In this document: one piece after another, positions 1,571-45,956 of the stretch
How the letters are laid out: each line of letters starts with the position of its first letter
Numbering within the stretch: position 1 is the first letter of the stretch
IMG/VR virus record: IMGVR_UViG_3300020460_000012
Origin: a virus
Lineage: Duplodnaviria; Caudoviricetes
DNA: 64,000 bases
Strand: one strand, 5' to 3'
Notes under the pieces: model-generated
What the model saw: only the letters and a program-made list of their open reading frames with translations
What the model was told of the DNA's origin: nothing
The model's database searches: none
Position numbers and translations under genes: made by a program

Positions 1571-1589
1571 TTATATATGTACTTAATAA

Positions 1590-13752: not shown

Positions 13753-13776
13753 ATAAGTATTTATTTAGGGGTATTG

Positions 13777-14658
13777 ATGGTACAAACATTTCCGATATCA
13801 GCTTTAACACATAATAATTATTTTACTACGTCTGGTCACGGTTCAAGATGGAAAGTAAAATTGAAATCAGGTGACAGGTTTCCAGATAATTATTACAAGG
13901 AAAGTATTAGAGCCGCTCGGCTACTAGACTCTTCAATTGACGCACCTTTGGTATTATTGTTCAGTGGTGGTTTAGATAGTGAATATATGGTGAATGTTTT
14001 TATTAAATCGGGTGTAGAATTTAAAGTAGCAATTATAAGTTACGGAGATTATAATAAACATGATAACAAGTATGCCTTTGAATTTTGCAAAAAGCGTAAC
14101 ATAGAGCCTATTGTTATTGATGTCGATATAGAGAAATTTATTACTAGTGGCAGAATAATTGAAATAGCAAATGAAGCCAAATGTTGTGCTTATCAGATTC
14201 CTAGTATTATGGAAGGTATACTTAAAGTAGATGGTGCTGTAATAATGGCAAACGGAGAACCTTATGTAAAAAACTTTGATGGTGATTGGCGATGGGAAGA
14301 AACTGAAAGAGTCAATAGTTATATGAATTGGTACAAACAAAAAAATATTCTTGGTACACCGGATTTTTTAAGATATACTCCTCAAATGACAGCAGGTTTT
14401 TTGTTAGAACCTAGGGTAATGAAATTAGTGAACAATGAATTACCTGGAAAATTAAGCACTAGAACTAGTAAACATATAATATACAGTCAAAACTTTGACC
14501 TTGCAAAAAGATCAAAATTTACAGGCTGGGAAAAATTAGAACAAACTGATTTTATGAATAACGAAGTATTCCGTGAATTTGATTTATTAAAGAAAAAGTA
14601 TGACGGGGTTTTCGAAATGCAATACCAAGCTTTACTTGATATACTTTTACCTACATAA
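13777..14658 (+). CDS. PP-loop (adenine nucleotide alpha-hydrolase / asparagine synthetase C-terminal-like) protein
   Basis: 'LLFSGGLDSE' PP-loop; probable start ATG 13777. Confidence 0.6.
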   Translation: MVQTFPISALTHNNYFTTSGHGSRWKVKLKSGDRFPDNYYKESIRAARLLDSSIDAPLVLLFSGGLDSEYMVNVFIKSGVEFKVAIISYGDYNKHDNKYAFEFCKKRNIEPIVIDVDIEKFITSGRIIEIANEAKCCAYQIPSIMEGILKVDGAVIMANGEPYVKNFDGDWRWEETERVNSYMNWYKQKNILGTPDFLRYTPQMTAGFLLEPRVMKLVNNELPGKLSTRTSKHIIYSQNFDLAKRSKFTGWEKLEQTDFMNNEVFREFDLLKKKYDGVFEMQYQALLDILLPT

Positions 14659-30239: not shown

Positions 30240-30971
30240 TCAAAGTTTGAAATATTCTGTGTTATTATCAGAATCATGTTCTTTTTTTAAGTCTGGCTTT
30301 TTAAAGAACTTTTCTGGATCAATAAAGGTCCTATGCTCCAAATGTTCTAGACATCCGAAGTATGGAGGCATATACAAGTATATGTCCATTGCTAAACTTA
30401 CTCTTGGTTCTTCTCCCTCATATACTGGAACAAAATGTTCTACATATCCAGGAAAAAATGTTAAGCCTCCTTTTACATTTGGTAATGACACAGCCATTTC
30501 CATATGTTCATAAACTGTGCTACTATCTTTATAGTCGTCCAAATGCATATTTGCACTTAGATAAGTAGATTCTCCCGCACAATGTCGGTGTGTATCAATT
30601 TTATCACCTTTACGTAATATATTATACCAACAAGTAAAATGTAAATGATAGGGCTGGGTTTTATCTTGGAATATAAATTCTGCCCATTGAAATCTTATAA
30701 ATTCAAGCAAATCTTTCAATTCAGGACATTCATCTGCAAAGTCAAATACATGATATCTACCATATCTAGTAGTAACTTTATCTTCATCTAATCCTGTTCT
30801 TCCTTGTCCTTGCCACGGAAGTTTTAGGACTTCTTCTTCTTTTCCTATTAAGAAATTTCTTATTGTATCTATTTTATCTTTCTGATCCCACTGTGCAAAT
30901 CCTAGTGGTGCGTCCCATGAAGGAGCATAAGGGGTTACAGGCTGTTGGCTCTTTAACCTTGTAATGTGCAT
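30240..30971 (-). CDS. Putative 2OG-Fe(II) oxygenase (TIGR02466-like)
   Basis: 'CWYNI', 'THRH', 'LTFFPGYVEHFV', 'RVSLAMD'. Confidence 0.65.
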   Translation of the reverse strand: MHITRLKSQQPVTPYAPSWDAPLGFAQWDQKDKIDTIRNFLIGKEEEVLKLPWQGQGRTGLDEDKVTTRYGRYHVFDFADECPELKDLLEFIRFQWAEFIFQDKTQPYHLHFTCWYNILRKGDKIDTHRHCAGESTYLSANMHLDDYKDSSTVYEHMEMAVSLPNVKGGLTFFPGYVEHFVPVYEGEEPRVSLAMDIYLYMPPYFGCLEHLEHRTFIDPEKFFKKPDLKKEHDSDNNTEYFKL

Positions 30972-31713: not shown

Positions 31714-32613
31714 TCAAGTACCCCACGCATTTCCGAATAAGGATATGTGGAGTCTTGGCGTAAATCTCCATCCTCTTTCCATACACGCCTCCGCAACTTC
31801 TTGAACATTGAGATTATACTCTTCAGAGCGTCCCCCCAACGGCATAAGATATACCGGACAGTTGATCCCGGCGCTACGATACTCTTCGACAGCTCTAGTA
31901 ACTTCATCAAAGTCATCTTGAGTAGCAACCACAAACTTAAGATAAAGATCACTACCATCCACATTGTAATACTGACTAGCAATGTCAGGCTTAATAGCAG
32001 TATCCCAAGGTTCTCCGCTAACCGATAGTTTTGGGGAACAAGACCAAGTGATTTCAAATCTGTTTTGATTGCTGAGATAGTCGACAAAATCATCGTGTAA
32101 CTTTTGTGTAGTATTTGTTTCAAATGTAACATTTTTTAAATCTCGCATACGTGGATGATTAAATAGCTCAATGTAAAGCCGTTGCCACGCTAACAACGGT
32201 TCACCGCCAGTCATAATTAAGTGTATATCTTGTCCATTATCCTGTGTCCACTTACCTTGAGGAGTAAGTGATAGTAAATGTTCAACAACTTCATCAACTT
32301 CTGCTTGTTTGTTAAAATGTTTAAATTCAGGATATATACTTGCGTAAGTATCACAACCTGTATGTATAATAGGTAAATCGTTAAATTCTACAGTTGTTTT
32401 ATGTACTCCCCTTGCAATTAGATCAGCAACTTCAGCATTATGTTTTTTTCCTGCTTTATGTTGTTCCCATCTATCTCTTTTTTCATCTGTACCAAAGTTC
32501 ATACAACGAAAGTTACAACCAAATGTACGTAAAAAAACACTTGGCACTCCTACAAACTTGCCTTCACCTTGAACGCTATAAAAAGCTTCTGAGTATCTAA
32601 GCTTATTTCCCAC
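31714..32613 (-). CDS. queE: 7-carboxy-7-deazaguanine synthase (radical SAM)
   Basis: 'SEAFYSVQGEG..VGVPSVFLRTFGCNFRC', 'GCDT', 'TGGEPL', 'FETN', 'SCSPKL', 'PRLH'; GTG start with AGGAG SD. Confidence 0.9.
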   Translation of the reverse strand: MGNKLRYSEAFYSVQGEGKFVGVPSVFLRTFGCNFRCMNFGTDEKRDRWEQHKAGKKHNAEVADLIARGVHKTTVEFNDLPIIHTGCDTYASIYPEFKHFNKQAEVDEVVEHLLSLTPQGKWTQDNGQDIHLIMTGGEPLLAWQRLYIELFNHPRMRDLKNVTFETNTTQKLHDDFVDYLSNQNRFEITWSCSPKLSVSGEPWDTAIKPDIASQYYNVDGSDLYLKFVVATQDDFDEVTRAVEEYRSAGINCPVYLMPLGGRSEEYNLNVQEVAEACMERGWRFTPRLHISLFGNAWGT

Positions 32614-33292
32614 AAGCAAACTCCTGCTGAAGTTTTACATTGTCAATAAACTCTTTTTTAGTTGCAGGATCATTTTTAAATGCACCACGTAACACTGTAG
32701 TCTGTGTCAAACTACTGTGGGCTCTGATACCTCTGTTTTCGCAACAACCATGTGTAGCTTGAACATAAACTCCTACATGTTCGCTACCAGTTTCTTTTTG
32801 TATTGCATTTGCAATCATAACATTAAGTTCTTCTTGCAATGTTCCTCGCATAGCACACCATTGAGCAATACGTGTATATTTGCTTAGTCCTAATAATTTG
32901 GGTCCAGCAATGATACCAATATATGCTACACCTCTTACTGCTTGATGATGATGTGAACATAAACTTGTAAGTTCACTCCTAACAACCAACATACCTTCAT
33001 AACCATTTTCGATGTAGTTAGGAAAACTACTTGGATTAGGCATTGGATCATAACGACCAGACATAATCTCATTGATATACATCTTAGCCATACGCCTTGC
33101 AGTATCTTGGCTGTTAGGATCTGTTTTCGTATCAATTAACAGTTTTTGTAATACATTTTCAAAAGCAGGAACTGCTTCTTCAATTAGTTGTTGCTTATCG
33201 CCTTCTTCAAGTACATCACTAATATTGTCATTAGCCCAATACCTAATACCAGCTTCTTCTAGCTTTTCTTTAATTTCTTCTACTTTGCTCAT
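32603..33292 (-). CDS. folE: GTP cyclohydrolase I
   Basis: 'SLCSHH', 'GLSKYTR', 'LQEE', 'HGCCENRG'. Confidence 0.95.
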   Translation of the reverse strand: MSKVEEIKEKLEEAGIRYWANDNISDVLEEGDKQQLIEEAVPAFENVLQKLLIDTKTDPNSQDTARRMAKMYINEIMSGRYDPMPNPSSFPNYIENGYEGMLVVRSELTSLCSHHHQAVRGVAYIGIIAGPKLLGLSKYTRIAQWCAMRGTLQEELNVMIANAIQKETGSEHVGVYVQATHGCCENRGIRAHSSLTQTTVLRGAFKNDPATKKEFIDNVKLQQEFACGK

Positions 33293-33348
33293 TTTTTTCT
33301 CCGATGTTGAGGCAGTGGATTGCCAATACAATGCATAATTTTATTATT

Positions 33349-33377
33349 ATTATACATTGTATTTAGGTTTTTGTCAA
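33349..33377 (-). promoter_or_regulatory. sigma70 promoter TTGACA-17-TATAAT for folE-queE
   Basis: Perfect consensus. Confidence 0.85.
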
Positions 33378-33592
33378 GCGTTTTCGCTTTTATCTCCAAA
33401 GTATTTGTCTAATACTTCAAGTTGATCATGGTAAGTAGCTATTTCGTTTAGTTCTTTTTCCATAGCTTCGATAACATCAGGATGTTCACCAATTCCTGCA
33501 GGATTATTTAGGTATACTTCAACATTACCGATGTGTTTTTGTATGTGTCCGTGTGCGTGGCTACGTAGAGCCTTTAGTAATTTATCTCTCAT
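33374..33592 (-). CDS. Hypothetical protein
   Basis: ORF with GGAG SD; probable start 33592. Confidence 0.55.
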   Translation of the reverse strand: MRDKLLKALRSHAHGHIQKHIGNVEVYLNNPAGIGEHPDVIEAMEKELNEIATYHDQLEVLDKYFGDKSENA

Positions 33593-33983
33593 TTGCTTCC
33601 TCCGTAGATTTGTAATTACCTTTTGCTGGAATAACATGTCTGACTCCACCACGTGGATCTTCCATGTCTCCGTTTCTTCTAAATATTAAATGTACATGTG
33701 GGTACATGCATGTTTGTCCTGCACTCTCCCCTACATTTAATCCGACATTGTATCCAGTGATATTGTTATTTTTACTTTCAACATTGTCGTATCCCATAGT
33801 AACTGCATAATTAAAACACTTCAAAATATTTTCTTGTGTTGCTTCTCTAGGTACAATAAGAGTATGTCCTTCTGTAACTGGAAAAGCATCTTTATAGACT
33901 ATGAAATCTCTTGTCTCCAATTCAACGTCTGTCCATGGAGCTCTTTTTTGTTCTTGTGCTAGTGTAAGTGTGTCTGCCTTCAT
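33582..33983 (-). CDS. HIT-family nucleotide hydrolase
   Basis: 'FPVTEGHTLIVP', 'NVGESAGQT..YPHVHLI'. Confidence 0.9.
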   Translation of the reverse strand: MKADTLTLAQEQKRAPWTDVELETRDFIVYKDAFPVTEGHTLIVPREATQENILKCFNYAVTMGYDNVESKNNNITGYNVGLNVGESAGQTCMYPHVHLIFRRNGDMEDPRGGVRHVIPAKGNYKSTEEANER

Positions 33984-34537
33984 TCGTATTTACCTACATT
34001 TTCCCATGGATAAACTAACCAAACATCATCTTCAGCTTTGTTTATTTCATGAGCATAAAAATTTACATGATCAAAATTACTTGCAAGGTTTTCTGTTAAT
34101 ACTGCAAACTTTACAGTGTTACCCCATACTACGTCCCAAACGTCTTTTTCATTTGAAAAACATCCGGATTGCCAATCTTCTATTATCCAATTGAAGGTAG
34201 TGCCTGTATCATTAATATCATCTACGATTAAAATTTTCTTTCTTTTGTGAGGGTCAAATCGGCTTTTATATACCTCAAGCTCATTAAGTGGAACAACTCC
34301 AAAAGCATCTTCAGCCATCCAATTATTGCTTTCTAGTTTGCTATCATCACGTAGGCTTACTTTAATTGCTTCACAAGGTATACCCGTCATATTGCTTATA
34401 ATAGTTGCAGGTATATTGCCTCCTCTTGTAATGCCTACGATATAATCTGGAGTAAACTTACTTGTGTACATTGTAGTAACAATTTCTGTACACATTTTTT
34501 CAATATCTTGCCAACTATAGTAATGTTTTTTAATCAC
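33980..34537 (-). CDS. Type I purine phosphoribosyltransferase (Gpt-like)
   Basis: 'IVGITRGG', PRPP motif 'ILIVDDINDTGTT', 'WLVYPWE'. Confidence 0.85.
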   Translation of the reverse strand: MIKKHYYSWQDIEKMCTEIVTTMYTSKFTPDYIVGITRGGNIPATIISNMTGIPCEAIKVSLRDDSKLESNNWMAEDAFGVVPLNELEVYKSRFDPHKRKKILIVDDINDTGTTFNWIIEDWQSGCFSNEKDVWDVVWGNTVKFAVLTENLASNFDHVNFYAHEINKAEDDVWLVYPWENVGKYE

Positions 34538-34778
34538 AGAAGTTCCTCCAAAATTTACAGTTTGCTAACTTTGCACCTTCTGTAGGTACTGTGCATACAC
34601 GTTCATGTCTACTATTTTCCCAACAGTCTCCTGTCAGCCCACGCATTTTTGCAAATTTAGAAAAGCCATCATCAATACTTAAAATAATTATTCCTGGCAA
34701 AACAAGTCCAAACAATACAATGTTCAAAAACGCCCAACCAAAGCCTTCGTTATGATACGGTAAATTAGGATCTCCCAT
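34530..34778 (-). CDS. Small membrane protein
   Basis: One TM segment plus a Cys-containing tail. Confidence 0.5.
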   Translation of the reverse strand: MGDPNLPYHNEGFGWAFLNIVLFGLVLPGIIILSIDDGFSKFAKMRGLTGDCWENSRHERVCTVPTEGAKLANCKFWRNFCD

Positions 34779-35247
34779 TCAAATACTCCTCGCTATCAAT
34801 CCATTTATATCCAGTAGTTGCCATAGTGTTACCAATTACAAAAGGAAGAAACCCCCAGCTTTTTGCTTTTCGTCCCATATAGAATAAACTCCAACATGGA
34901 ATCTCTTTCCCGTTTTTATCTTTTTGTAATTCTAGCCAATGCAGATCGTCTGATCCTCTATATCTAAAATGTCCTGGCCCACGCCAAACTTTTGTACTGC
35001 CTACTACATGACCTTCCTGTGAATATACAGGAATATGTTCGTAATATCCGCCTTTTAGAATAAGTGTTGCATACGACCAAGGATGGTCATGTAATACCTC
35101 CTCATCACTTTTGAGAACTTTATGTAATGTTATATTAAAAGGAAACCAAGTTCTATCTTTTAAAAAAAGGTAGTATCGTACTAGATAAGGTATCTTTCCT
35201 TCTCTATCGTAAATTACTCTTTTTCTGTTTTTGAAGAAATTAATCAT
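34765..35247 (-). CDS. Cupin-like protein
   Basis: 'LHDHPWSYATLILKGGYYEH', 'HWLEL'. Confidence 0.55.
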   Translation of the reverse strand: MINFFKNRKRVIYDREGKIPYLVRYYLFLKDRTWFPFNITLHKVLKSDEEVLHDHPWSYATLILKGGYYEHIPVYSQEGHVVGSTKVWRGPGHFRYRGSDDLHWLELQKDKNGKEIPCWSLFYMGRKAKSWGFLPFVIGNTMATTGYKWIDSEEYLNGRS

Positions 35248-35606
35248 TTTTTCTTCCGCTTTCCAACCCAATCTTGATGTACCATTTTGTAAGCTATTTT
35301 AAAATTATCAAATGCTTTTTCTAATCCAGGATATTCTGCACACATATCTTGTATCTTTTCGAAGCTCGGTAAGCAATCTTCGAAATCTACAGGAGGATTT
35401 GTGTTTATATTAATTGTATCGTCTTTATATCCTGTAAGGTCAATAGTTGTATCACCAAAAGTTATATTGTTGCTAGATTCAGTTGAAATAGTATAGGTTA
35501 TATCTCCGCCTGATGAAAAGACTGGAGCATTTTCCCAGTTTCCTGTTACAGTAAAAGTATCATTTTTATCATCCACCCTTAACCTCCTCATATAAGTCTT
35601 TACCAC
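35244..35606 (-). CDS. Hypothetical protein
   Basis: ORF in operon. Confidence 0.5.
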   Translation of the reverse strand: MVKTYMRRLRVDDKNDTFTVTGNWENAPVFSSGGDITYTISTESSNNITFGDTTIDLTGYKDDTININTNPPVDFEDCLPSFEKIQDMCAEYPGLEKAFDNFKIAYKMVHQDWVGKRKKK

Positions 35607-36627
35607 TAAAAAAGTTTTTCTTTAATTTTATTGCTTGTTTTTGTAGACTAGGCAAATAGTCATCATAATTTTCTATATACTCAACAATTTGATCAATAAC
35701 TTGTTGTTTGTGTATAGTGTAAGAATTATAATCTTCTGTCCACTCACTTGGATATTTAAAAGTAGACATTGCCATTTCGCTATAACTTAGTCTGTCAGGA
35801 ACCATAGGAATAGCATCAACCAATGCACCTTCATACCAACTAATACCAAGTGTTTCTTGCAAGTTTGCACTAAACACAATCTTAGATTCGCCTAGTAGAT
35901 TATGATATTCATTTTTTGATAGTTCTCGTTCTTGACATACTACAAAGTCATATTGCGGTAGACTTTGTTTTAGATCATGAAAAATATCAATTTGTTTTTC
36001 AGGAGCAATACGATGCGGAAATAAAATTAAATCTCTTTTCTCCATATGTCTATATTGTTCTAATGAAGTACACAAATACTCCATTGGCCAACCAACTCTT
36101 ATACTTTTACGCTCAAAGTCTAAACCTTCGTCGATAAAAATGTTTTCAAACATTTCTATATGAAACTCAGTAGCAAAAAAGTTATGATCGTAACATTCAT
36201 ACATACTTGCTTCAGCTTTTCTAACCCAAGGTTTATCCCCAATAAGTCTACCTAAAAAGTCCTGCGGATCATAACTACCAGCATGCCACATACCACCAAT
36301 GTAAATGTCAACACCGAGTAGCTCTGCCATATAGCGTAATTGAATAACTGTAGGATTCCAAGCATCAGTATAAAGAAAATAATCTCCGTCTGATATTTTT
36401 CCATTACAAAACATTTCTCCGATCTGTTCTAATTGCTTAGACTTATAAACATTGGTGCCACCAAAGTTAAGGAAAGCACCAGGTGTTGTTGATTGCGGAG
36501 TATCTCCACCACTAATTACTACTACTTCTTCATTTGTAGCTCGACGCATCTGCTTCGGCAAATGTTCTTTCCACTGTTTTGTATAACGTGTGTCGACAGC
36601 TTCTATATCTACAATATGAATTGTCAT
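35569..36627 (-). CDS. GT-B glycosyltransferase (GT4-like)
   Basis: 'FPHRIAPEKQ' and E-x7-E 'ETLGISWYE', 'AIPMVPD'. Confidence 0.8.
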   Translation of the reverse strand: MTIHIVDIEAVDTRYTKQWKEHLPKQMRRATNEEVVVISGGDTPQSTTPGAFLNFGGTNVYKSKQLEQIGEMFCNGKISDGDYFLYTDAWNPTVIQLRYMAELLGVDIYIGGMWHAGSYDPQDFLGRLIGDKPWVRKAEASMYECYDHNFFATEFHIEMFENIFIDEGLDFERKSIRVGWPMEYLCTSLEQYRHMEKRDLILFPHRIAPEKQIDIFHDLKQSLPQYDFVVCQERELSKNEYHNLLGESKIVFSANLQETLGISWYEGALVDAIPMVPDRLSYSEMAMSTFKYPSEWTEDYNSYTIHKQQVIDQIVEYIENYDDYLPSLQKQAIKLKKNFFSGKDLYEEVKGG

Positions 36628-36630
36628 AAG

Positions 36631-36816
36631 TTACTTCCTCCTGCTAGCTTTCTTAGCTCTAAGCCAGCCCCTGTATTTTTCATAAGCTTGCCAATTAGGA
36701 TCTTTCTTGTTATAAAGAGCCTTTTCATCAAACTTCTTCCCTTCAAAACGGCAATAGTCACGATATACTTCAAGGTCGTTGAAGATCTTTGCCACAACCG
36801 GGTTTTTAATAGACAT
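36631..36816 (-). CDS. Hypothetical basic protein
   Basis: ORF between the T-fold gene and the GT. Confidence 0.55.
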   Translation of the reverse strand: MSIKNPVVAKIFNDLEVYRDYCRFEGKKFDEKALYNKKDPNWQAYEKYRGWLRAKKASRRK

Positions 36817-36838
36817 AGTATTAATCTTCCTTTTGTCA

Positions 36839-37333
36839 TTAACTCTTTGGGTAAAAAATTGAACAGCCGTTTTCGTTATCTTCGCTTACTTCAATTTCGA
36901 CAAAACGGCCAGGATGTCGAGTTGAAATTTGTTCGTACAATTCATCAGCAATCATTTCGCATGATTTATGATCTAGAACGAGCACCTCGCTTGTGCCCTC
37001 AGTCTGCTGATAAAGTCTTTCAAGCCATCGTTTGAATTGGATGAATTCGATGTCTCTATCGTCGTGAAACACCTCGATACGCACCCTGAAGTGGAATATA
37101 TGACGATGAGGATGACCAAGGAACGAAACATCGTCCCAATCACCTGTTGCAAGTTTTGGATCATTTAGTGCCGCCGGATAACAATGTACACCTTCCTTCG
37201 AGAATGTAACCCATATACTTCGTTCTGCATTATTTAGTTTCATATTTTTTTTGTCCTCTTGTCTTAATTTCCAAAGCATCCAGTCGTAATATCTTTCTGG
37301 TTCGGGATCATTGGTTGTTTCATCTAATGTCAT
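36839..37333 (-). CDS. QueD-like T-fold protein with LxxxHRHxF motif (DpdL-like)
   Basis: 'FLGHPHRHIFHF', 'SCEMIA', 'EVSEDNENG'; lacks the QueD CxxxHGH motif. Confidence 0.7.
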   Translation of the reverse strand: MTLDETTNDPEPERYYDWMLWKLRQEDKKNMKLNNAERSIWVTFSKEGVHCYPAALNDPKLATGDWDDVSFLGHPHRHIFHFRVRIEVFHDDRDIEFIQFKRWLERLYQQTEGTSEVLVLDHKSCEMIADELYEQISTRHPGRFVEIEVSEDNENGCSIFYPKS

Positions 37334-37337
37334 TTAC

Positions 37338-37366
37338 AGTATACTTTCATTTAACAGGTTTGTCAA
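37338..37366 (-). promoter_or_regulatory. sigma70 promoter TTGACA-17-TATACT upstream of the T-fold/GT genes
   Basis: Read directly from sequence. Confidence 0.75.
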
Positions 37367-37862
37367 GGCCATATTTGGCCCAATCCGTAAATTTATTTGA
37401 ATCCATTAAGTCATGCAGTCTGTGACTCCAAACGCCTGGATTAGTTTCAGCAAATCCTTTGTCGTCAATCTTAACCATAGTATTGTAATTCCATTGTTTT
37501 ACATATGGAATTGGTACACGGATTTGCGGAATAAAGTTGTTGTACTCTGTGAGACCGTATTCTAAAATTTCTTCAGCACAAGCAATTGGAATATCTAAAC
37601 TACACCAATAATCTTTCTTTAAAAAAGTTACAATCATCTCAGCCCATCCAGGTCCAACTCGATTAGGTTGTACACTATGGTTAGCACCAAAGAAAATATG
37701 TTCAATATTAGAATATGCAAGTAATTGTTTTTCAATATCTTTTACAGGTTGTACTCCTGCTACAAATAAAGTATACATACCATATGCTGGAGTATGCTCT
37801 ACTTCTGTACCAGTGAAGTAAGTGATGTTGTCAAATTCGCCTGCGTCATAGTTTCTTTTCAT
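37347..37862 (-). CDS. Uncharacterised protein directly downstream of dpdA
   Basis: 171-aa ORF starting 3 nt after the TGT stop. Confidence 0.7.
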   Translation of the reverse strand: MKRNYDAGEFDNITYFTGTEVEHTPAYGMYTLFVAGVQPVKDIEKQLLAYSNIEHIFFGANHSVQPNRVGPGWAEMIVTFLKKDYWCSLDIPIACAEEILEYGLTEYNNFIPQIRVPIPYVKQWNYNTMVKIDDKGFAETNPGVWSHRLHDLMDSNKFTDWAKYGLDKPVK

Positions 37863-37865
37863 AAT

Positions 37866-39335
37866 CTATCCAAATAGTTCGTTAAACTTTGTTGCCGCAT
37901 TTACAGTTTTTTTGCCTATTGCACCTCTAGTGCCGATGATAGACATCCAGAATCTTGAAAACTCTTCTATTACCAAGTTCGCTTCGTCTCTGTTGTCAGT
38001 TGCAAATATTGCTTCCACAACATCTTTAAAAAATAACCTGTCGAATTGCTCTTCAACAAGCATGTTCGGAATGACGCCATTGTCGTATTGTCTATTGGCT
38101 TCTTGTACTGCATTGATATGACTCCACACATTATGTCCCATTTGAATAGCATATGAAAAACTATCCCAACTAGTTTTACCTTCTTTACCTATTTTATTTA
38201 AATCTCCTGGACCATATACACATATATCTTTGGCTTGTAATTCTGCCGTCACAGGAGAATCTTTAAAACTTGTATGTTTACCTTCTCTTACAAATGCACT
38301 TGCAAACGGACTTGAATCGTTAGCTAAAGACTTATCGTCTATACTAGGCACCATTCGATACACCCATTTTGCTCTATCTTGTGTTTCTAGTTCACAATAA
38401 ATCTGTCCGTTTGCAGTTGCTAAGAACGGTGATGCACAATCAAATGTAACCATAAAGTTAGGATTATGATATTTTCTAACTGCTCTTTGTATGTCAGTTA
38501 ACAATGTAGCCCATTCTAATTTTGATGTGCCTAAAAAATGCATAACATCATGTACGCCTTTTTCTAATAATCCATCGAATCTCAAAGCAACCAAACGTTT
38601 CAAAACTAGATGAACATCACACATATTTTGTCCACCCATTGACCAGCCATTAAAGTGTCTATCTGGATATACTTTAGGATCGCAGTAATCTTTCATTTGA
38701 TCATACCAATCATCTGCGTCTGCGTGATTTTCTCCTTGTAAAACATTCAAAAATTTGCAATCACCTGTCCTGTGTTGCATAAAATAATCATTATTGATTC
38801 GTGTCGCTTTAACTGCTTCTGCATATGTACTAATGCCTGTTGCTTTTGCACCTTCAGGAGATCGTGAAACCCAAGCTGGAATATCAAGTATCATTCCATA
38901 GTCCATATAAGCATCCATCCAACGTAAAACACCATCACGTTTCTTTTGAGCTTTAGGACAATTAGGATCCTTCCAATCACCTTCCCAAACACCTTTACCA
39001 ATTTGGAAACCACCGGAATCGCCTAGTAACCAAGTGTTTGCCCTATCTCTATTACGAACCATATCTTCTTTAGGAACAAATTTATTAGTATCTAAATCAG
39101 CATGTCCTGCAGAGTATAGTGTCCATTTATACTGAAACATTCCTTCTTGGTTATTAAGATAATTAAGGCTTTCTACTCCGTTAGGAAAATTGCTAGGTAT
39201 TCTAGCTGGATCAACATAAGGCCCTTTAACAGGATCAGGATGACGCTGTTTACCAATATAAGTGGCAAAGAAACCACTCAATGCTGGTAAGAAAGTTGCG
39301 TAATCTTTCTGAGCTGTTGTTAAGTCTGTGATCAT
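37866..39335 (-). CDS. dpdA: Guanine transglycosylase (TGT/DpdA family)
   Basis: 'GDSGGFQ', 'MILDIP', 'VLQG', 'WSMGG', 'HFLG', 'TFDCASP'; start ATG 39335. Confidence 0.85.
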   Translation of the reverse strand: MITDLTTAQKDYATFLPALSGFFATYIGKQRHPDPVKGPYVDPARIPSNFPNGVESLNYLNNQEGMFQYKWTLYSAGHADLDTNKFVPKEDMVRNRDRANTWLLGDSGGFQIGKGVWEGDWKDPNCPKAQKKRDGVLRWMDAYMDYGMILDIPAWVSRSPEGAKATGISTYAEAVKATRINNDYFMQHRTGDCKFLNVLQGENHADADDWYDQMKDYCDPKVYPDRHFNGWSMGGQNMCDVHLVLKRLVALRFDGLLEKGVHDVMHFLGTSKLEWATLLTDIQRAVRKYHNPNFMVTFDCASPFLATANGQIYCELETQDRAKWVYRMVPSIDDKSLANDSSPFASAFVREGKHTSFKDSPVTAELQAKDICVYGPGDLNKIGKEGKTSWDSFSYAIQMGHNVWSHINAVQEANRQYDNGVIPNMLVEEQFDRLFFKDVVEAIFATDNRDEANLVIEEFSRFWMSIIGTRGAIGKKTVNAATKFNELFG

Positions 39336-39445
39336 GTTACCTGCACAGCAATATACACACAAAGGGCAAGTATTGCTAACTTGCCATAGTCAAGGTCAAA
39401 GTCTGTACCTTCACCATACTTTTTTCTAAATTCACTAAACTTCAT
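39332..39445 (-). CDS. 37-aa membrane peptide (not in ORF track)
   Basis: AGGAGG SD; MKFSEFRKKYGEGTDFDLDYGKLAILALCVYIAVQVT; ATGA overlap with dpdA. Confidence 0.65.
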   Translation of the reverse strand: MKFSEFRKKYGEGTDFDLDYGKLAILALCVYIAVQVT

Positions 39446-39453
39446 GTTACCTC

Positions 39454-40185
39454 CTATTTGCTTTGTGCTGGCAAAATGTAATCATATTTTGCTAGTCCAC
39501 TATCAACACTTATTTGCATTGCACCTTGATCGCTAATACTCATTGTAATATCGCCATCTAAGTTTAAAATAGCTTGTACTTGTGCTACTGGCCAACTCCA
39601 TGTATGTGCCAATGTACCTTCAACACCTGCTTCAAATACAAATGTACCTGCGTGTGTACTTTGATCTCCAAAGCTAAACACTAAGTCGCCATCTTTAGTT
39701 GAAACATTAAATGTTGGTTCTTCTGCATGTGCCGCACTTTGCAATTTCATTCTACCAATTGCCGCAACACTTGGTTGAAATGTTACATTCCAGGCCGCAC
39801 CTTTAAACTTTACACTTTTTAGTTTTTCATCGATAATTTGCTTATTCATAAATCGATAATCATTTTCAAAATCGCCACTTGCGTTTTCAAAGTGAATATG
39901 TGTAGGAATTGTTTCGCCGTTCCTATCAGCATTCACTACGTCAATCTTTGCATCTTTCTGATATTCTGGATTCTTCAAATGTAATGCAAGTTTGTCTAAG
40001 TTAGGCATACCAAATGTGCCATTAAATTCAGACACACTATTATGTGTTGTAGAATTTAAAATCACAGAACGATCTTCTGCCATACTTTCAATTGTTGTTG
40101 TATCAGCTTCACTATTAACTTTTACCAAAGTTAAAAATCCTAGTGCGTGTGTTTTAGCAACAACGTCTTGTAAAATGTCTTTCAT
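39454..40185 (-). CDS. Putative sliding clamp (T4 gp45-like)
   Basis: 243 aa, beta-rich two-domain pattern, in the replication operon with its own sigma70 promoter. Confidence 0.55.
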   Translation of the reverse strand: MKDILQDVVAKTHALGFLTLVKVNSEADTTTIESMAEDRSVILNSTTHNSVSEFNGTFGMPNLDKLALHLKNPEYQKDAKIDVVNADRNGETIPTHIHFENASGDFENDYRFMNKQIIDEKLKSVKFKGAAWNVTFQPSVAAIGRMKLQSAAHAEEPTFNVSTKDGDLVFSFGDQSTHAGTFVFEAGVEGTLAHTWSWPVAQVQAILNLDGDITMSISDQGAMQISVDSGLAKYDYILPAQSK

Positions 40186-40946
40186 GCGGGTTCTCCATTA
40201 GTTATATTAAGTATAATGCCTTTGTTGGGCTTTGTCAAGAAGTTTTCTATTGTATATTTAGGTTTAAAGCCTAAAACTTTCATCTTTTCTATATTAGCAC
40301 ATGTAAATTTCCTTTCATGTGGGGTATTTAGACGGATAGGAGCATTTGGTACTAAGTCTCGAACTCTAATCGGGTTACCAGTACCAATGTCCACTATACC
40401 AGTTACATGGGGTTTGTTAATTAGTATTTTAATTGCATCACACACGTCATCTAAATGTATAAAATCTCTATGATGAGTAGTTACATATTCTAATTCATTG
40501 TTTAACACTTTATCTAAGAACATTCCTTTTCTAGGAGTTTCACTAAACACAGTATGAAATCTCATTCCAAGTGTATTAGGATACCTAGCGGCAAGTTCCT
40601 CAATGATATATTTAGATGCCGCATAAGGATTTAAGTCAGGCTCATATGCACTCGAACTACTCGCATAAAGTATTCTTGTATCTGCATATCTTTCAAATAA
40701 TCTACGACTTGCTTCAACATTGTTTTGCCAATATGAAGCAGGGTCGTCTAAACTTTCTCTGACACCAGACTTACCAGCTAAATGGATTATTAAATCAAAT
40801 TCTTCATTCGGCAACTCACAAGTTAGTAAATCGTTACCATCTATTAAATCAAAACCTGTAACTTCATTATGTATTAATTTTTCATAAAGCCTACTGCCTA
40901 TAAAACCTCTATGTCCTGTAATTAATATCTTTTGTACAGCTATCAT
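40182..40946 (-). CDS. NAD-dependent nucleotide-sugar epimerase/dehydratase
   Basis: 'ILITGHRGFIG', 'IHLA', 'ASSSS', YxxxK 'YAASK', 'RDFIHLDD'. Confidence 0.9.
   Translation of the reverse strand: MIAVQKILITGHRGFIGSRLYEKLIHNEVTGFDLIDGNDLLTCELPNEEFDLIIHLAGKSGVRESLDDPASYWQNNVEASRRLFERYADTRILYASSSSAYEPDLNPYAASKYIIEELAARYPNTLGMRFHTVFSETPRKGMFLDKVLNNELEYVTTHHRDFIHLDDVCDAIKILINKPHVTGIVDIGTGNPIRVRDLVPNAPIRLNTPHERKFTCANIEKMKVLGFKPKYTIENFLTKPNKGIILNITNGEPA
40210..40238 (-). promoter_or_regulatory. sigma70 promoter TTGACA-17-TATACT (inside the epimerase gene) driving clamp-dpdA
   Basis: Read directly from sequence. Confidence 0.75.
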
Positions 40947-41665
40947 AATGCTATTCCTAATTCTTTAAAATATTCAAGATATTCTTTTGTTTGCGACCAG
41001 TTCATTACCGATCTACTTGCACTTACTACTTGTGCGAGAGGGTAGTCATTTCCATCTTCGTCCATTCTATCTCCGAAGAAATATGTCTTATCTTGCGGAC
41101 CAAAGTCTTTTATAATTTGTGCTTTATCAGTACCTACGGGTGATATATCTATTCCTGTTTCTCCACCTACAGTTGCTTTAATATTAGGAAATAAGAAGTT
41201 GAAATTTTTTGCAATTATGTTTCTTTCATTTGTAAGTGTATCATACTTGAAATAGTCTGCCCTTTGTTCATTATTAGCATTTCTGCCTACTACACTAAAA
41301 TTTACCATACCAGGTCGATGTTCGAAATGTAAACCTGTTCTAATTTTAAAATCGCTTTCAGTTAATTGAATACTTAACCATTCATGTGCATCTTCAGGTA
41401 AAACCCAATCATTGGTTCGTACATTTACATCTTTTTCCCAAACATCATTACCATTACAATTATAAACCCTTTGACATTTATTATAGATAGTTTCTCCAAT
41501 TTGTTCAATCGTCTTAGGCCTATCACTCCCAGTCACAAGATATACCTCATTAGAGTTACAAAAATCTCTAAACCAAACTGCAAATCTTTTATCTATAGGT
41601 TGTCGACTTGGAGTTAATGTTCCGTCAACATCAAAGATAAATTTATTTTTTAGTTTTTTTGTCAC
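40943..41665 (-). CDS. HAD-family (eukaryote-type) phosphomannomutase
   Basis: 'FDVDGTLT', 'EHRPGMVNFSVVGR', 'GGETGIDI', 'FFGD....GND'. Confidence 0.85.
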   Translation of the reverse strand: MTKKLKNKFIFDVDGTLTPSRQPIDKRFAVWFRDFCNSNEVYLVTGSDRPKTIEQIGETIYNKCQRVYNCNGNDVWEKDVNVRTNDWVLPEDAHEWLSIQLTESDFKIRTGLHFEHRPGMVNFSVVGRNANNEQRADYFKYDTLTNERNIIAKNFNFLFPNIKATVGGETGIDISPVGTDKAQIIKDFGPQDKTYFFGDRMDEDGNDYPLAQVVSASRSVMNWSQTKEYLEYFKELGIAL

Positions 41666-41825
41666 CTTTCTTCTTCCTTTTAGCATACATACCGCTTGTA
41701 TATTCTACCTCTTCAGAACGAGCACCATAAGGATAAACTGTAATTTTATTTCCTTTTGCTAACCATTCGTCTATTAATTTTTTATCTTCAGCTCTCTCTT
41801 TTTCTCTTTCATCGTTAATGCTCAT
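41643..41825 (-). CDS. Hypothetical small basic protein
   Basis: ORF in operon. Confidence 0.55.
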   Translation of the reverse strand: MSINDEREKERAEDKKLIDEWLAKGNKITVYPYGARSEEVEYTSGMYAKRKKKGDKKTKK

Positions 41826-42238
41826 CTGTCCTCCGTTTCAGCAACTCGTGAACGTAAATCACTTGTGCTGAATCGGTGATCTCGTTTATTAAAATGTAAG
41901 TCAATATCTCTACTACGACATATATCTTTACCTGTAAAATCTTTGTCTCGATATTCTTCTCCTAGTATTCTTACATTAATAGGATACATTTGTAAAATAT
42001 CTTCTAAATCTTTTTCTGTGCCATAAGGAATAATTTCGTCTACATATTCAACTGCATTAAGTTGTGTATACCTTTCTACAATACTTTGTATAGGAGCATT
42101 TTTTTCTTTTCTATCTACACTAGGATCAACTTGTAATCCTACTAACAAATAGTCGCATTGTTCTTTTGCTTCACGCAACATTATTACATGTCCAGCATGT
42201 AACAAATCAAAAGTTGAGCATGTAAATCCTACTTTCAT
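41822..42238 (-). CDS. Glycerol-3-phosphate cytidylyltransferase-like nucleotidyltransferase
   Basis: 'TFDLLHAGH' (HxGH), 'ERY', 'FSTSDLR'. Confidence 0.9.
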   Translation of the reverse strand: MKVGFTCSTFDLLHAGHVIMLREAKEQCDYLLVGLQVDPSVDRKEKNAPIQSIVERYTQLNAVEYVDEIIPYGTEKDLEDILQMYPINVRILGEEYRDKDFTGKDICRSRDIDLHFNKRDHRFSTSDLRSRVAETEDR

Positions 42239-42567
42239 TAGTGTTTCCTTTTTCCATCGAAGACACAAACAAAATACATGTCCGAATCACGTAAATTCAT
42301 TACCTTATGAAATACGCCATCTTGGATAGGTACTACATCGCCTGCTTCTACTTTAATAAATTCATTATCCAATTGCATTTGTCCTGCCCCTTCAATAAAG
42401 AAATAAACTTCTTCTTGACCATCATGACTATGCCCACTTGTTTGTTTATGCCCATGCAATCTCGTACTACTTAGAACAAGTGTATTACCAAAGGGATTGT
42501 CTTTAACAACATACCTATCATCCTGTTTAGCAATATAACCACCGATGTCGTCAATGTTTACTTTCAT
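42238..42567 (-). CDS. Cupin (mannose-6-phosphate isomerase-like)
   Basis: 'GHSHDGQEEVYFFIEG', 'FHKVMN'. Confidence 0.75.
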   Translation of the reverse strand: MKVNIDDIGGYIAKQDDRYVVKDNPFGNTLVLSSTRLHGHKQTSGHSHDGQEEVYFFIEGAGQMQLDNEFIKVEAGDVVPIQDGVFHKVMNLRDSDMYFVCVFDGKRKH

Positions 42568-42577
42568 TATTTCTCCT

Positions 42578-45250
42578 TTAAGTTCCAAAATCAAATAAGC
42601 TGTTAAATGTATTGTGTTGCTTTGTATCTTCAAGTGGGTAATCAAGCACACCAATTAAATTGTCAAGTTTGTTATCAATTATAGTTTCAGCCATTGCGGC
42701 ATCATCAAACGGAAGTTCTTTAAACCAATCAGGAATATGTAATTCATCTGTTGGATATGCTACACTTGTATAACCTAACGGGTTTTGTTTTAGCTTACAC
42801 ACAATTACTTTCATACCATCTACAATTTCTTGAGAATATTTGTCGCCGTTCATACGTTTAAGTGTATTCCAATTAATGCTCGCTCTTACATGGCCAGGCA
42901 TATTTGCCTTTCCCTGTTTCTCCTCCAGTCTCTGATAGTGACCAATTTTATTTGCACGTTTCGGCGAACCTTTTTCCCAGCCAGGACGTTCACTGAATTC
43001 TTTTCTGAATACAGTAATACGTTCTAGTACATCTTCTTGAGGTGCATTTGTAAGTACCATAAGTAGTAATTCACTGAGAAACTCTTGCATAAAAACAGGA
43101 GTATCTGATCTACGCAAGTCTAAGCCCATTGCTTTTACTTTTCCTGCTTTACCATCTACGTCTGTTCTAAAACCTTCGTTATCAATAACCAGTGCCGCAT
43201 AACGTTTTTTTGTAATATATAATCCGCTTTCAGCAACAATCTCTCTACCTGCCGCAATTACATCTGATCGTGTCTTTGGACAATGGAATGCTTGTAACAT
43301 GAACTTTTCAAATGTAGTATTTGCCGCTTCGCATACTTGATCATATAAAGTAATTACGTTGTCTTTCGACCAAGGAATCTTTTTGCTTTCAATATCATTT
43401 TTCAATGTAGGATATGCACTAAAGTAACAAGAGTCAGTATCACCATAAATCATAGCTTCGCCAACATGATCATACTTTCCAGTAATTACTTTGTTTACTT
43501 CTGCTGACATATGCTTTACAATAGTTCTACCTGTCAGTGTAGTAGACTGACCAATACGTTTATCGAAAAAACGACAGCCAGGGTTGAGAATAGCGCCGTA
43601 CAAGCTATTAAGATTAATTTTTTTAACAAGTTGTCTTTTGTCCCAGTACTCTGTTTCGATTGCATTTCCAGCATCCTTTGCTTTTTTAAGTTGTGCTTGT
43701 AGTTCTTTACGTTCGCTATACCAACGTTTTAGCAGTCCAGGAATAACACCTTCATGCTCTGTAGTAAAAATTGTACCATTCGAACTTAGCATCCAAGGTT
43801 TGTTACTATCAAAGATAATTTTGTAAAGTTCTGCACCACTTACTACTTCAGTATTACCATTTTCAAAGTCAACTGTTAGTGCAACATCTTTACGTTGATC
43901 CATAACTGCATCATATTCCTCTGTAGCAAATTTACCTTCCCAACTCCCTGCAAATGATTTCTTCTTTAAAGTTGTATCTTCGTGTACACGAGCTTCACTT
44001 ATTTCAGGACGTATTTGTCCTACGATAGTTGCTGGATCCATATTTAATGCACGAATAACACTCGGATATAGACTGTTTAAGTCCATACTACCTATCCATT
44101 TATGAAGTCCTTTTTTAGGAAATGCAACATACGCACCTGCCGCGGCTGTGTTTTCGCTATCATCTCTTTTAGGTCTATTTGGAACTTGCATGCCTCTATG
44201 ATGTGCTTCATTAACAATAGCTTGTTCTGTAACTGCTACTGCACCCATTGTGGTCTGTAGCAAAACAGTATTTGCATGTGCAAGTTCGTTACTTAGATCA
44301 ATGAATCTTAGTTTTTTGTCCAGCTTGTCCAGTAGTGCGGTATCTTGTATGTTGTATTCAATGAATTTTCTAAAGTCATTGTTGTACAATTGATCCAAAG
44401 TTCCTTCATAAGGCACTTTGTTCTCACCAACTTCGATTTCACCAATAGCATCAAGTCTATAACTGTGTCTTTCTTCATATGTGTATTTACGATATAATTC
44501 TAAACTATCTAAATGCACTCTGCCTATTAGGTCAAAGGTAACAGCTGATTTTCCATACTTTTCATACTCACGTTTTTTAGGCAGTTGTCCCCATAAGCAA
44601 AATCTTCTTGTATCGTCTTTACTTAATACTCTACTTGTTCTATTTACTGTGTAAGGAATATCATATCCTTCACTATTCCAACCACTTAGTATGTCAGCAT
44701 CTTCAATTAGTGTTAAAAAAGTATCGATCATTTCGCTTTCTTTTTCAAAAAGCATTACATTATCAATACCTTCAAGTTCTTTTTTAGCTTGATCCATTGT
44801 AAGGGTCTTTGGAGGGACTGCCAAGCAGACCATTGTTTCTAGCCACTGTAAATATACAGCAATAGAGGTAATAGGCATAAATGGATCAGCAGGATCAGCA
44901 AAACCTCTCTCTGGATCAAAGTCAGTCTCGATATCAAAGAATGCAATGTTTAGTTTTGGTGCATCTTGATTAAGATAATTTTCGCTTAAACATTGGAATA
45001 TAGGATTAATGTCGCTTTCGAAAAGTTGTTTGTCTCGATTAATTGCAACTTCTTTACGAAAGTCTTTTGTGTTTTTGCAAACAATTCGACTCAAAGGGTC
45101 ATCATATATACTTCTATATTTGCCTCTTTGGTCTTTATAATAGAATGTGTACTTTGCCTGATATTCAGTATAATGTCTTTTGCCTTCTTTACGCTCAACG
45201 ACTCTAATAATGTCAGAGTCCCTATCAAATAGTGCGTCTACGTAACTCAA
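42578..45250 (-). CDS. Family B DNA polymerase (gp43-like)
   Basis: Exo I FDIETD, 'DLNSLYPS', 'KINLNSLYG', 'YGDTDS', 'KKRY'; TTG start with GAGGAG SD. Confidence 0.97.
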   Translation of the reverse strand: MSYVDALFDRDSDIIRVVERKEGKRHYTEYQAKYTFYYKDQRGKYRSIYDDPLSRIVCKNTKDFRKEVAINRDKQLFESDINPIFQCLSENYLNQDAPKLNIAFFDIETDFDPERGFADPADPFMPITSIAVYLQWLETMVCLAVPPKTLTMDQAKKELEGIDNVMLFEKESEMIDTFLTLIEDADILSGWNSEGYDIPYTVNRTSRVLSKDDTRRFCLWGQLPKKREYEKYGKSAVTFDLIGRVHLDSLELYRKYTYEERHSYRLDAIGEIEVGENKVPYEGTLDQLYNNDFRKFIEYNIQDTALLDKLDKKLRFIDLSNELAHANTVLLQTTMGAVAVTEQAIVNEAHHRGMQVPNRPKRDDSENTAAAGAYVAFPKKGLHKWIGSMDLNSLYPSVIRALNMDPATIVGQIRPEISEARVHEDTTLKKKSFAGSWEGKFATEEYDAVMDQRKDVALTVDFENGNTEVVSGAELYKIIFDSNKPWMLSSNGTIFTTEHEGVIPGLLKRWYSERKELQAQLKKAKDAGNAIETEYWDKRQLVKKINLNSLYGAILNPGCRFFDKRIGQSTTLTGRTIVKHMSAEVNKVITGKYDHVGEAMIYGDTDSCYFSAYPTLKNDIESKKIPWSKDNVITLYDQVCEAANTTFEKFMLQAFHCPKTRSDVIAAGREIVAESGLYITKKRYAALVIDNEGFRTDVDGKAGKVKAMGLDLRRSDTPVFMQEFLSELLLMVLTNAPQEDVLERITVFRKEFSERPGWEKGSPKRANKIGHYQRLEEKQGKANMPGHVRASINWNTLKRMNGDKYSQEIVDGMKVIVCKLKQNPLGYTSVAYPTDELHIPDWFKELPFDDAAMAETIIDNKLDNLIGVLDYPLEDTKQHNTFNSLFDFGT

Positions 45251-45357
45251 TTTTTTCTCCTCGTTGCTTTTGGCCAACTTAACCGTCTACATGCCCTGTG
45301 GGCGATATTGTACTTATTCAAGTATTTTACCTTGTAAAGTATTTGTGGTTGTAATCA

Positions 45358-45927: not shown

Positions 45928-45956
45928 ATTATACTACAATTTTATGAGGTTGTCAA
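45928..45956 (-). promoter_or_regulatory. sigma70 promoter TTGACA-17-TATAAT heading the polB operon
   Basis: Perfect consensus. Confidence 0.85.

Follow-up and report, generated by a model that had tools for sequence, protein, structure and literature searches.

A glycosyltransferase linked to 7-deazaguanine genes in marine jumbo phages: a candidate DNA-hypermodification module

Results

We analysed a 64,000-nucleotide stretch of viral DNA (hereafter the window; IMG/VR record IMGVR_UViG_3300020460_000012), which corresponds to bases 108663-172662, reverse strand, of contig C57, and found in it a row of genes in which those for making 7-deazaguanine (DG) and putatively inserting it into DNA stand together with a gene for a glycosyltransferase (GT). 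We lean, with slightly better than even confidence, towards reading this cluster as a DNA-hypermodification module of marine jumbo phages that makes a glycosylated 7-deazaguanine in DNA. The identities of the genes, the fold and catalytic motifs of the GT, and its linkage with DpdL, DpdA, FolE and QueE are firm. The row and its order, as first read in a preliminary description made from the letters of the DNA, were borne out by the open reading frame (ORF) listing and by family searches, which place all of the named genes on the minus strand of the window.

The GT gene is linked to DpdL in most lineages

A synteny check had been proposed beforehand, and it came out in favour of linkage. In 13 of the 15 GT lineages with usable context the gene for DpdL, a QueD-like protein proposed to decarboxylate 7-carboxy-7-deazaguanine (CDG), lay within 4 kb of the GT gene and was mostly directly adjacent to it, with the gene orders rearranged and the phage backbones differing between lineages. 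PA5oct-like phages have the order family B DNA polymerase (polB), clamp, DpdA, GT, DpdL, phosphoribosyltransferase (PRTase) and QueE, and Phosso has polB, clamp, DpdL, GT, FolE and QueE; the order is QueD, FolE, a homologue of a conserved 171-amino-acid (aa) protein of the window, DpdA, GT, DpdL and QueE in ACP17, and FolE, GT, DpdA, DpdL and QueE in X1. Coordinates place DpdL within 4 kb of the GT in BUDD and BCSR5 as well, and the same linkage is seen in eight more lineages of uncultured phages, found by way of distant members of the GT family (L096-L103, L106, L110, L111 and L112/113). Among the 50,697 records of a phage collection, 22 had a match to the GT and 17 of these also had a match to DpdL, which was itself matched in 32 records in total.

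In the marine clade, DpdL was found within 4 kb of the GT at 80 loci, and the row was well conserved there. DpdL and the 171-aa protein were present in all of the 66 loci that hold both DpdA and GT; 59 loci span the interval from GT to FolE, all with the PRTase and 52 with a HIT-family protein, and 53 span that from polB to the clamp. Trees of the GT and of DpdL both group the marine clade with PA5oct and Phosso; since their deep branches show saturation and have poor support, they are read as agreeing roughly on co-inheritance and no further. As far as we found in the literature, this conserved GT-DpdL module is undescribed.

The linkage bears directly on a simpler explanation, namely that the cluster makes plain 2'-deoxy-7-deazaguanine (dDG), as in the Cellulophaga phage phiST, and that the GT, a mere neighbour in an early or replication operon, acts not on nucleic acid but on some other target such as a metabolite, a virion protein or the host envelope. 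Complete replacement by dDG is indeed achieved in phiST without a GT, the GT is found away from deazaguanine clusters in two lineages, and further sugar genes exist elsewhere on the contig; the protein is also acidic and comes closest in fold to GT4 enzymes that act on small molecules. A chance neighbourhood is nevertheless hard to credit for a gene that stays within 4 kb of DpdL in 13 of 15 lineages despite the reordering and the very different backbones, and we consider this explanation unlikely.

DpdL also occurs alone, since neither phiST nor Rhizobium phage RHph_I1_18, which both carry it, has a member of the GT family anywhere in its genome. Because of this pattern, which is the one expected of an enzyme of further modification, the GT would be an optional extra layer on a DpdL-type pathway. 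In the GT-less RHph_I1_18 (L012, 6971-8232) a macro-domain (Appr-1-p processing) protein directly follows DpdL, and the pair may represent a different elaboration of the DpdL pathway.

Some loci with GT genes carry additional features. One deazaguanine cluster (lineage L096/L097) holds two GT paralogues, L097:2772-3953 and L097:8001-9092, which recall the alpha/beta pair of phage T4 and could provide two sugars or two linkages. At L111:8001-12475 three genes come after those for the GT and DpdA, encoding a polysaccharide deacetylase (Polysacc_deac_1), an S-adenosylmethionine (SAM) methyltransferase and a PTPS protein, an arrangement that suggests an N-acetylhexosamine deacetylated after transfer. 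A gene resembling alcohol dehydrogenase adjoins the GT in L106. In the Xanthomonas phage PhiXhv-12 (L094, 5669-8903) GlmS and an LmbE/BshB-type deacetylase are the neighbours of a distant GT paralogue, and this locus may be a different sugar-based modification system.

The GT has a predicted GT4-type fold with conserved catalytic motifs

The GT (352 aa; 35569..36627, minus strand, as are all genes and promoters placed by coordinates in the window below) was modelled by AlphaFold (AF2) from an alignment of 59 sequences, with a predicted local distance difference test score (pLDDT) of 95.8 and a predicted template modelling score (pTM) of 0.93, as a GT-B fold of two Rossmann domains. Searching the PDB with this model in Foldseek gave 413 matches at E<=0.001, headed by BshA, the Bacillus anthracis GT4 enzyme BA1558, PglA, MshA and PimA, and the fold matches in Swiss-Prot agreed, being retaining GT4 enzymes. 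Across the 59 family members the EX7E motif is kept (E258 nearly invariant, E266 invariant), a basic pair of the donor-diphosphate type in the donor domain, R206/K211, is at least 90% conserved, and the acceptor domain has a set of conserved aromatic and acidic residues.

By sequence, the GT matched nothing in Pfam (Glycos_transf_1/Glyco_transf_4), NCBIfam, PHROG or the PDB; its relatives have only 'faint' precomputed matches to Glycos_transf_1, and the family profile retrieved the glycosyltransferase 8xsg from the PDB weakly (2.6e-5). The GT4 call of the preliminary description was thus right in fold and motifs, with no Pfam model reaching threshold, and on these two grounds the protein is predicted to be a retaining GT4-type GT-B enzyme. 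It belongs to a big family, which falls into 1158 clusters at 50% identity; in ocean metagenomes, clustering at 90% identity gives more than 8000.

Fold matches of this kind are compatible with a product that never enters DNA. The GT might glycosylate 7-deazaguanine as a free base, or else a nucleotide that the PRTase forms from that base, and so yield a soluble metabolite like huimycin that serves as an inhibitor, storage form or signal. HuiG, also of GT4 type, acts in this way on the free base, and BshA and MshA, among the best fold matches, have small-molecule acceptors; the acidic acceptor domain, the recurrence of the PRTase beside the GT and the existence of other tailoring enzymes that convert CDG to tubercidin point the same way. 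On the other side, hardly any lineage has the GT without an accompanying DpdA-type DNA transglycosylase and the DNA of PA5oct is itself modified at G, and on this evidence a soluble product seems distinctly unlikely.

We also considered whether the GT glycosylates another DNA base, for instance a hydroxymethylpyrimidine as in the T-even phages or base J. To our knowledge the described DNA sugars all sit on hydroxymethylpyrimidines, and a 2-oxoglutarate (2OG)-Fe(II) oxygenase gene lies close by, at 30240-30971. That oxygenase does not accompany the GT in other lineages, however, and the GT is unlike the alpha- and beta-glucosyltransferases of T4 (AGT and BGT) in the fold ranking. We found no hydroxymethylase of the ThyA family on C57, ACP17 or X1, and for this reason a hydroxymethylpyrimidine acceptor is improbable; we give the whole explanation very little weight.

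The gene set would supply 7-deazaguanine through CDG

FolE and QueE lie at the downstream end of the row. The GTP cyclohydrolase I FolE (32603..33331) was recognised by Pfam (2e-37) and NCBIfam (FolE, 137 bits), and the QueE-like radical SAM 7-carboxy-7-deazaguanine synthase (31714..32619) by phrog_2076 (5.9e-53) and by several NCBIfam QueE models, all below cut-off. The T-fold protein, which had been put forward as a possible decarboxylase, was identified by its motif and by homology to phiST as DpdL (164 aa; 36839..37333; phrog_17812). Hutinet et al. (2023, PMC10516641) set DpdL, the proposed CDG decarboxylase, apart from QueD by the motif LxxxHRHxF. This replaces the CxxxHGH of QueD with loss of the catalytic cysteine; the protein in the window reads LGHPHRHIF, and 60 of 66 homologues have the motif, the phiST DpdL among them. 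The window protein aligned with that of phiST (CGPG_00067/gp040) at a tblastn E of 1e-7, and the family profile matched the phiST ORF at 6.4e-34. The genomic context is that of DpdL too, with FolE, a QueD-like protein, QueE and a DpdA-like protein present and no clear QueC.

The preliminary description had found no canonical queD in the window and had called for a search of the rest of the genome for queC and queD. The absence stands for the window itself, but a QueD-like gene is present on the same contig, 36 kb past the end of the window (C57:72027-72530; Pfam PTPS, 45 bits, above cut-off; phrog_2389, 'QueD-like'). Its motif is CHLLHGY, in which the last histidine of CxxxHGH has become tyrosine. 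Its neighbours are a cupin-like 174-aa protein and two others of 195 aa and 287 aa (L011 = G000:C57:70587-73967, 831-3335), none of which had a significant family match, the 174-aa protein having one weak NCBIfam match.

QueC was not clearly found on C57, nor was QueF, and clear matches to the two were limited to the host contigs of the metagenome bin that contains C57. A 315-aa PP-loop protein located 23 kb away (window 13711-14658, plus strand) weakly matched QueC over positions 3-69 of 210, and was rejected as a hidden QueC since the N-terminal PP-loop alone matches. The same N-terminus weakly matches TilS and argininosuccinate-synthase-like models besides QueC, and the protein is possibly an amidotransferase or adenylating enzyme. 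With no QueC the pathway would not reach preQ0, which upholds the earlier logic that the product is CDG, or DG if the T-fold protein, now the candidate decarboxylase DpdL, acts on it. As judged by homology, the genes appear to be the same set of FolE, QueD, QueE, DpdL and DpdA by which phiST replaces its guanine completely with dDG.

A probable divergent DpdA-type transglycosylase of 498 aa

The putative inserting enzyme is a 498-aa DpdA-like guanine transglycosylase of the tRNA-guanine transglycosylase (TGT) superfamily, encoded at 37866..39335; the ORF extends to 39362 through an upstream TTG, and its relatives start at the methionine at 39335. As a single sequence it had no match in Pfam (TGT included), NCBIfam, PHROG or the PDB. 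It nevertheless keeps the DSGGFQ, LD, HxLG and FDC motifs, and in an alignment of 13 divergent sequences, which takes in homologues from uncultured phages and from PA5oct, Phosso, ACP17 and X1 at 16-36% identity, the residues D106-S-G-G-x-Q, D151 (LD..P), QG, H266-x-L-G and D299 (FDC) were invariant. The family profile matched 44 PDB sequences across the catalytic core (TGT residues 99-295), weakly (E about 0.01), and all of them were TGTs.

Because the motifs are conserved and the profile retrieved only TGTs, we accept the protein as a probable divergent DpdA-type transglycosylase. Its homologues occur in phage DNA-modification clusters, beside the GT in PA5oct, ACP17 and X1, and a canonical host tgt is present on another contig of the bin; both points would fit, indirectly, an action on DNA rather than on tRNA. 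Compared with the 259-aa DpdA candidate of phiST the alignment was weak (hhalign probability 38%).

Sugar-donor genes are a feature of the marine clade

The sugar-donor genes that the preliminary description saw as co-transcribed with the GT are an insert between polB and the clamp that is specific to the marine clade; they are missing from the clusters of the other GT-bearing lineages examined, and little or nothing separates polB from the clamp gene in PA5oct and Phosso. The insert comprises a nucleotidyltransferase resembling RfaE domain II, the heptose-1-phosphate adenylyltransferase (41822..42268; Pfam CTP_transf_like; 50 of the 53 marine loci), a phosphomannomutase (PMM)-like HAD-IIB protein (40943..41686; Pfam PMM, 8.6e-21; HAD-SF-IIB; 39/53), a short NAD-dependent nucleotide-sugar epimerase of the HldD/GalE type (40182..40946; Pfam Epimerase; phrog_540; NCBIfam heptose_epim and galE below cut-off; 48/53) and sometimes a Cupin_2 protein (42238..42654; Pfam Cupin_2, 4.9e-11; 16/53), which is possibly a sugar-phosphate isomerase. 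All 53 loci have at least one of the nucleotidyltransferase, PMM and epimerase genes.

The best models for these proteins were enzymes of ADP-heptose synthesis, at scores well under their cut-offs (NCBIfam rfaE_dom_II, 75 against 181 bits; HldD-type epimerase, 57 against 275 bits), with phrog_7878 (1.9e-35) supporting the call of a protein like heptose-1-phosphate adenylyltransferase. We saw no GmhA or kinase gene for an ADP-heptose route. By homology, the insert probably supplies a nucleoside diphosphate (NDP)-hexose or NDP-heptose donor of the manno type, and position makes its tie to the GT plausible. Roughly 120,000 guanines per genome would be modified, so the demand for donor would be heavy. 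At another place on the phage contig (G000:C57:273149-275708) there is a second pair of genes, for a nucleotidyltransferase-domain protein and an epimerase. The pair at G000:C77:49032-51591 has profile scores identical to it, and the 153-kb contig C77 therefore probably duplicates part of C57, either because it comes from a variant strain or because the region was assembled twice in the bin.

The type I PRTase (33980..34537; Pfam Pribosyltran) is closest to xanthine-guanine PRTases, the NCBIfam xanthine PRTase model being the best, below cut-off, and homologues adjoin the GT in PA5oct and in L100-L102. This Gpt-like enzyme would most likely recycle the guanine released by DpdA into GMP. Its recurrence in every GT-to-FolE marine locus and beside the GT elsewhere could instead reflect a route at the level of monomers, in which the PRTase makes a DG or CDG nucleotide that is reduced, phosphorylated and incorporated by the polymerase, with the GT decorating the DNA later and the DpdA-like protein serving repair or editing. 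The nearby HIT (33582..33983; Pfam HIT, 7.5e-8) and NT5C-type nucleotide enzymes would suit such a route, as would the position of the cluster next to polB. Salvage of released guanine fits the PRTase equally well, however, the DpdA-like protein has kept its catalytic motifs, and all known 7-deazaguanine modifications of DNA are inserted by DpdA after replication (Hutinet et al. 2023, PMC10516641), all of which leaves the monomer route quite improbable.

Contig C57 is a jumbo phage genome

Contig C57 (335 kb, 36% GC) comes from an 82-contig, 2.36-Mb metagenome bin, a marine metagenome-assembled genome. Close relatives of genes of the cluster number in the thousands in ocean metagenomes, where the contigs that carry them reach ~343 kb, and relatives occur in 346 IMG/VR viral contigs; marine sequencing runs from at least 11 studies contain the stretch. 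The GT family was not found in five genomes of the same genus as the bacterium of the bin, and none of 400 bacterial genomes of its phylum had a full-length member. Because the relatives are viral and oceanic and lie on large contigs, and these bacterial genomes have no full-length GT of the family, C57 is a jumbo phage genome binned with a bacterium and not a chromosomal island, and the GT family appears to be phage-specific. A megablast search of the phage collection with the cluster region gave no match.

Remaining genes, promoters and flanks of the cluster

The row opens with polB (42578..45277; Pfam DNA_pol_B and exonuclease domain), which is 49% identical to the polB of PA5oct and of Phosso. 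The probable sliding clamp (39454..40185; phrog_12062) has a Phosso homologue annotated as such, and its nearest named Atlas clusters carry gp45/PCNA domains, which is a lead rather than proof. The conserved 171-aa protein (37347..37862), which occurs in ACP17 as well, was modelled by AF2 at a pLDDT of 77, with no useful match in the Atlas, PDB or AFDB and no convincing fold match. Downstream of the GT are a 120-aa protein (35244..35606; 48 of the 59 marine loci spanning GT to FolE, with low conservation) and a cupin-like protein (34765..35271; phrog_4786, 2.6e-30, annotated 'cysteine dioxygenase' in PHROG; 41/59), the latter not found in the other GT-bearing lineages examined.

The 211-bp gap between DpdL and the GT was considered as a riboswitch and rejected, since Rfam gave nothing at gathering thresholds or at E<=10 and the gap is occupied by a conserved 61-aa gene (36631..36816), found by tblastn in the same place in 79 of the 80 marine loci. 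Its product is basic, and its 3' end holds the AGGAGG Shine-Dalgarno sequence that precedes the GT start codon; we saw no homologue in the other GT-bearing lineages. A 71-aa ORF in another frame of the gap is probably spurious.

Internal sigma70 promoters had been noted within the row, and four coding-strand sites do match at 11 or 12 of 12 positions: perfect sites (TTGACA-17-TATAAT, 12/12) upstream of polB (45928..45956) and folE (33349..33377), and strong ones (TTGACA-17-TATACT, 11/12) upstream of the clamp gene (40210..40238) and just upstream of DpdL (37338..37366). Promoter-like sites as a whole were not enriched, with 59 found against 58 expected from shuffled sequence, and weak matches were no commoner than chance. 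The cluster is flanked by the 2OG-Fe(II) oxygenase gene already mentioned (minus strand) and by the gene for a 761-aa protein with a deoxynucleotidase (NT5C) domain (47996-50281); in lineage L112 an NT5C gene follows the GT too.

Discussion

What DpdL does, which acceptor takes the sugar and at which site, what the donor is and how the PRTase takes part are all inferred from these genes, and the following scheme would connect them. FolE and QueE, together with the QueD-like enzyme whose gene lies outside the window on the same contig, would turn GTP into CDG; DpdL would then decarboxylate CDG to DG, as proposed for phiST, and the DpdA-like transglycosylase would swap guanine in the phage DNA for the deazaguanine base. 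Using a nucleotide sugar as donor, the GT would glycosylate the deazaguanine, either on the free base before insertion or once the base is in DNA, and the glycosylated 7-deazaguanine would block restriction enzymes. The free-base order may be at least as likely as glycosylation on DNA, given the precedent of HuiG, the acidic acceptor domain and the fold resembling BshA and MshA.

Several observations weigh against this scheme. The main chemical difficulty would be the acceptor, in that plain DG has no hydroxyl while BshA, MshA and PimA glycosylate hydroxyls, so that the sugar could have to be attached at the N2 amine, or at C7 or C8. The GT is acidic (isoelectric point 4.9), with 16 lysines and arginines against 27 aspartates and glutamates in its N-terminal (acceptor) domain, its nearest structures act on small molecules and not on DNA, and AGT and BGT are missing from its top 50 Foldseek matches in the PDB. 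The sugar-donor genes of the marine clade are not in the clusters of the other GT-bearing lineages examined, and two groups break the linkage: the polA phage lineage L107-109 has no deazaguanine genes near the GT, nor does the PhiXhv-12 group, whose GT is a distant paralogue. Finally, the activity of DpdL has never been demonstrated, expression in E. coli having failed according to Hutinet et al. (PMC10516641).

A wider reading is that the abundant marine jumbo phages, PA5oct and the phages that infect Acidovorax, Xanthomonas, Sinorhizobium and Burkholderia all replace guanine with a glycosylated 7-deazaguanine, through a phage-specific GT4-type enzyme that acts downstream of DpdL, possibly by N- or C-glycosylation; we regard the chances of this as evenly balanced. 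Modification with 7-deazaguanine and glycosylation of DNA are each known as protection against restriction, and we found no report of both on one base. If the glycosylated product is real, it would be the first sugar-bearing purine in DNA known to us. A sugar-bearing base could explain the lack of dDG in E. coli given only DpdL and DpdA from ACP17. A new hypermodified purine would bear on the specificity of restriction, CRISPR and type IV defences and on biases in the sequencing and assembly of marine viromes, and its enzymes could serve for DNA labelling. The GT family also occurs in culturable phages, including PA5oct, a therapeutic candidate.

Our full-text literature search returned no report of glycosylated 7-deazaguanine in phage DNA, and of the eight derivatives listed in the 2023 survey of phage 7-deazaguanines, which makes no mention of a glycosyltransferase, not one bears a sugar (PMC10516641). 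The known systems each resemble the cluster in part.

The AGT and BGT of T4 are phage GT-B enzymes that transfer a sugar from an NDP-sugar onto a non-canonical base, 5-hydroxymethylcytosine in DNA, as a second protective layer, and they are similar in size to the GT described here (about 350-400 aa). They differ in that their acceptor is the hydroxymethyl group of a pyrimidine, for which no hydroxymethylase was found here, and in standing outside the top fold matches. The eukaryotic queuosine glycosyltransferases QTMAN/GTDC1 and QTGAL, of which GTDC1 belongs to the GT4 family, glycosylate a 7-deazaguanine derivative within tRNA; their acceptor is a hydroxyl of the cyclopentenediol of queuosine, which is not present in CDG or DG. 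HuiG, from the huimycin cluster of Kutzneria albida, is a PF13439 enzyme of GT4 type that transfers N-acetylglucosamine (GlcNAc) from UDP-GlcNAc onto the free 7-deazaguanine base. Like the GT, it is encoded beside homologues of FolE, QueD and QueE, a likeness drawn from its description and not from its sequence; unlike it, HuiG belongs to a secondary-metabolite pathway with QueC (preQ0 core) and no DpdA, whose product is a free compound.

The closest parallels are found in two phages. The DNA of phiST carries dDG throughout, made by FolE, QueD, QueE, DpdL and DpdA3 (PMC10516641), and phiST shares with the cluster described here the combination of FolE, QueD and QueE without QueC, a DpdL with LxxxHRHxF, a divergent DpdA-type enzyme and a location among replication genes. 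It differs in having no member of the GT family in its genome and a cluster without PRTase, HIT or sugar-nucleotide genes. In PA5oct, a Pseudomonas jumbo phage of the genus Wroclawvirus, gp316-gp322 form one row of polB, a clamp-like protein, a DpdA-like protein (35% identity), GT (44%), DpdL (59%), a PRTase-like protein and QueE, with the GT preceding DpdL and no sugar-nucleotide genes between polB and the clamp. PA5oct DNA resists several restriction enzymes with G-containing sites and is a target of END nucleases, which recognise hypermodified DNA, and PA5oct, as a parallel case and not a characterised reference, thereby lends independent support to the view that relatives of this phage carry an unusual G.

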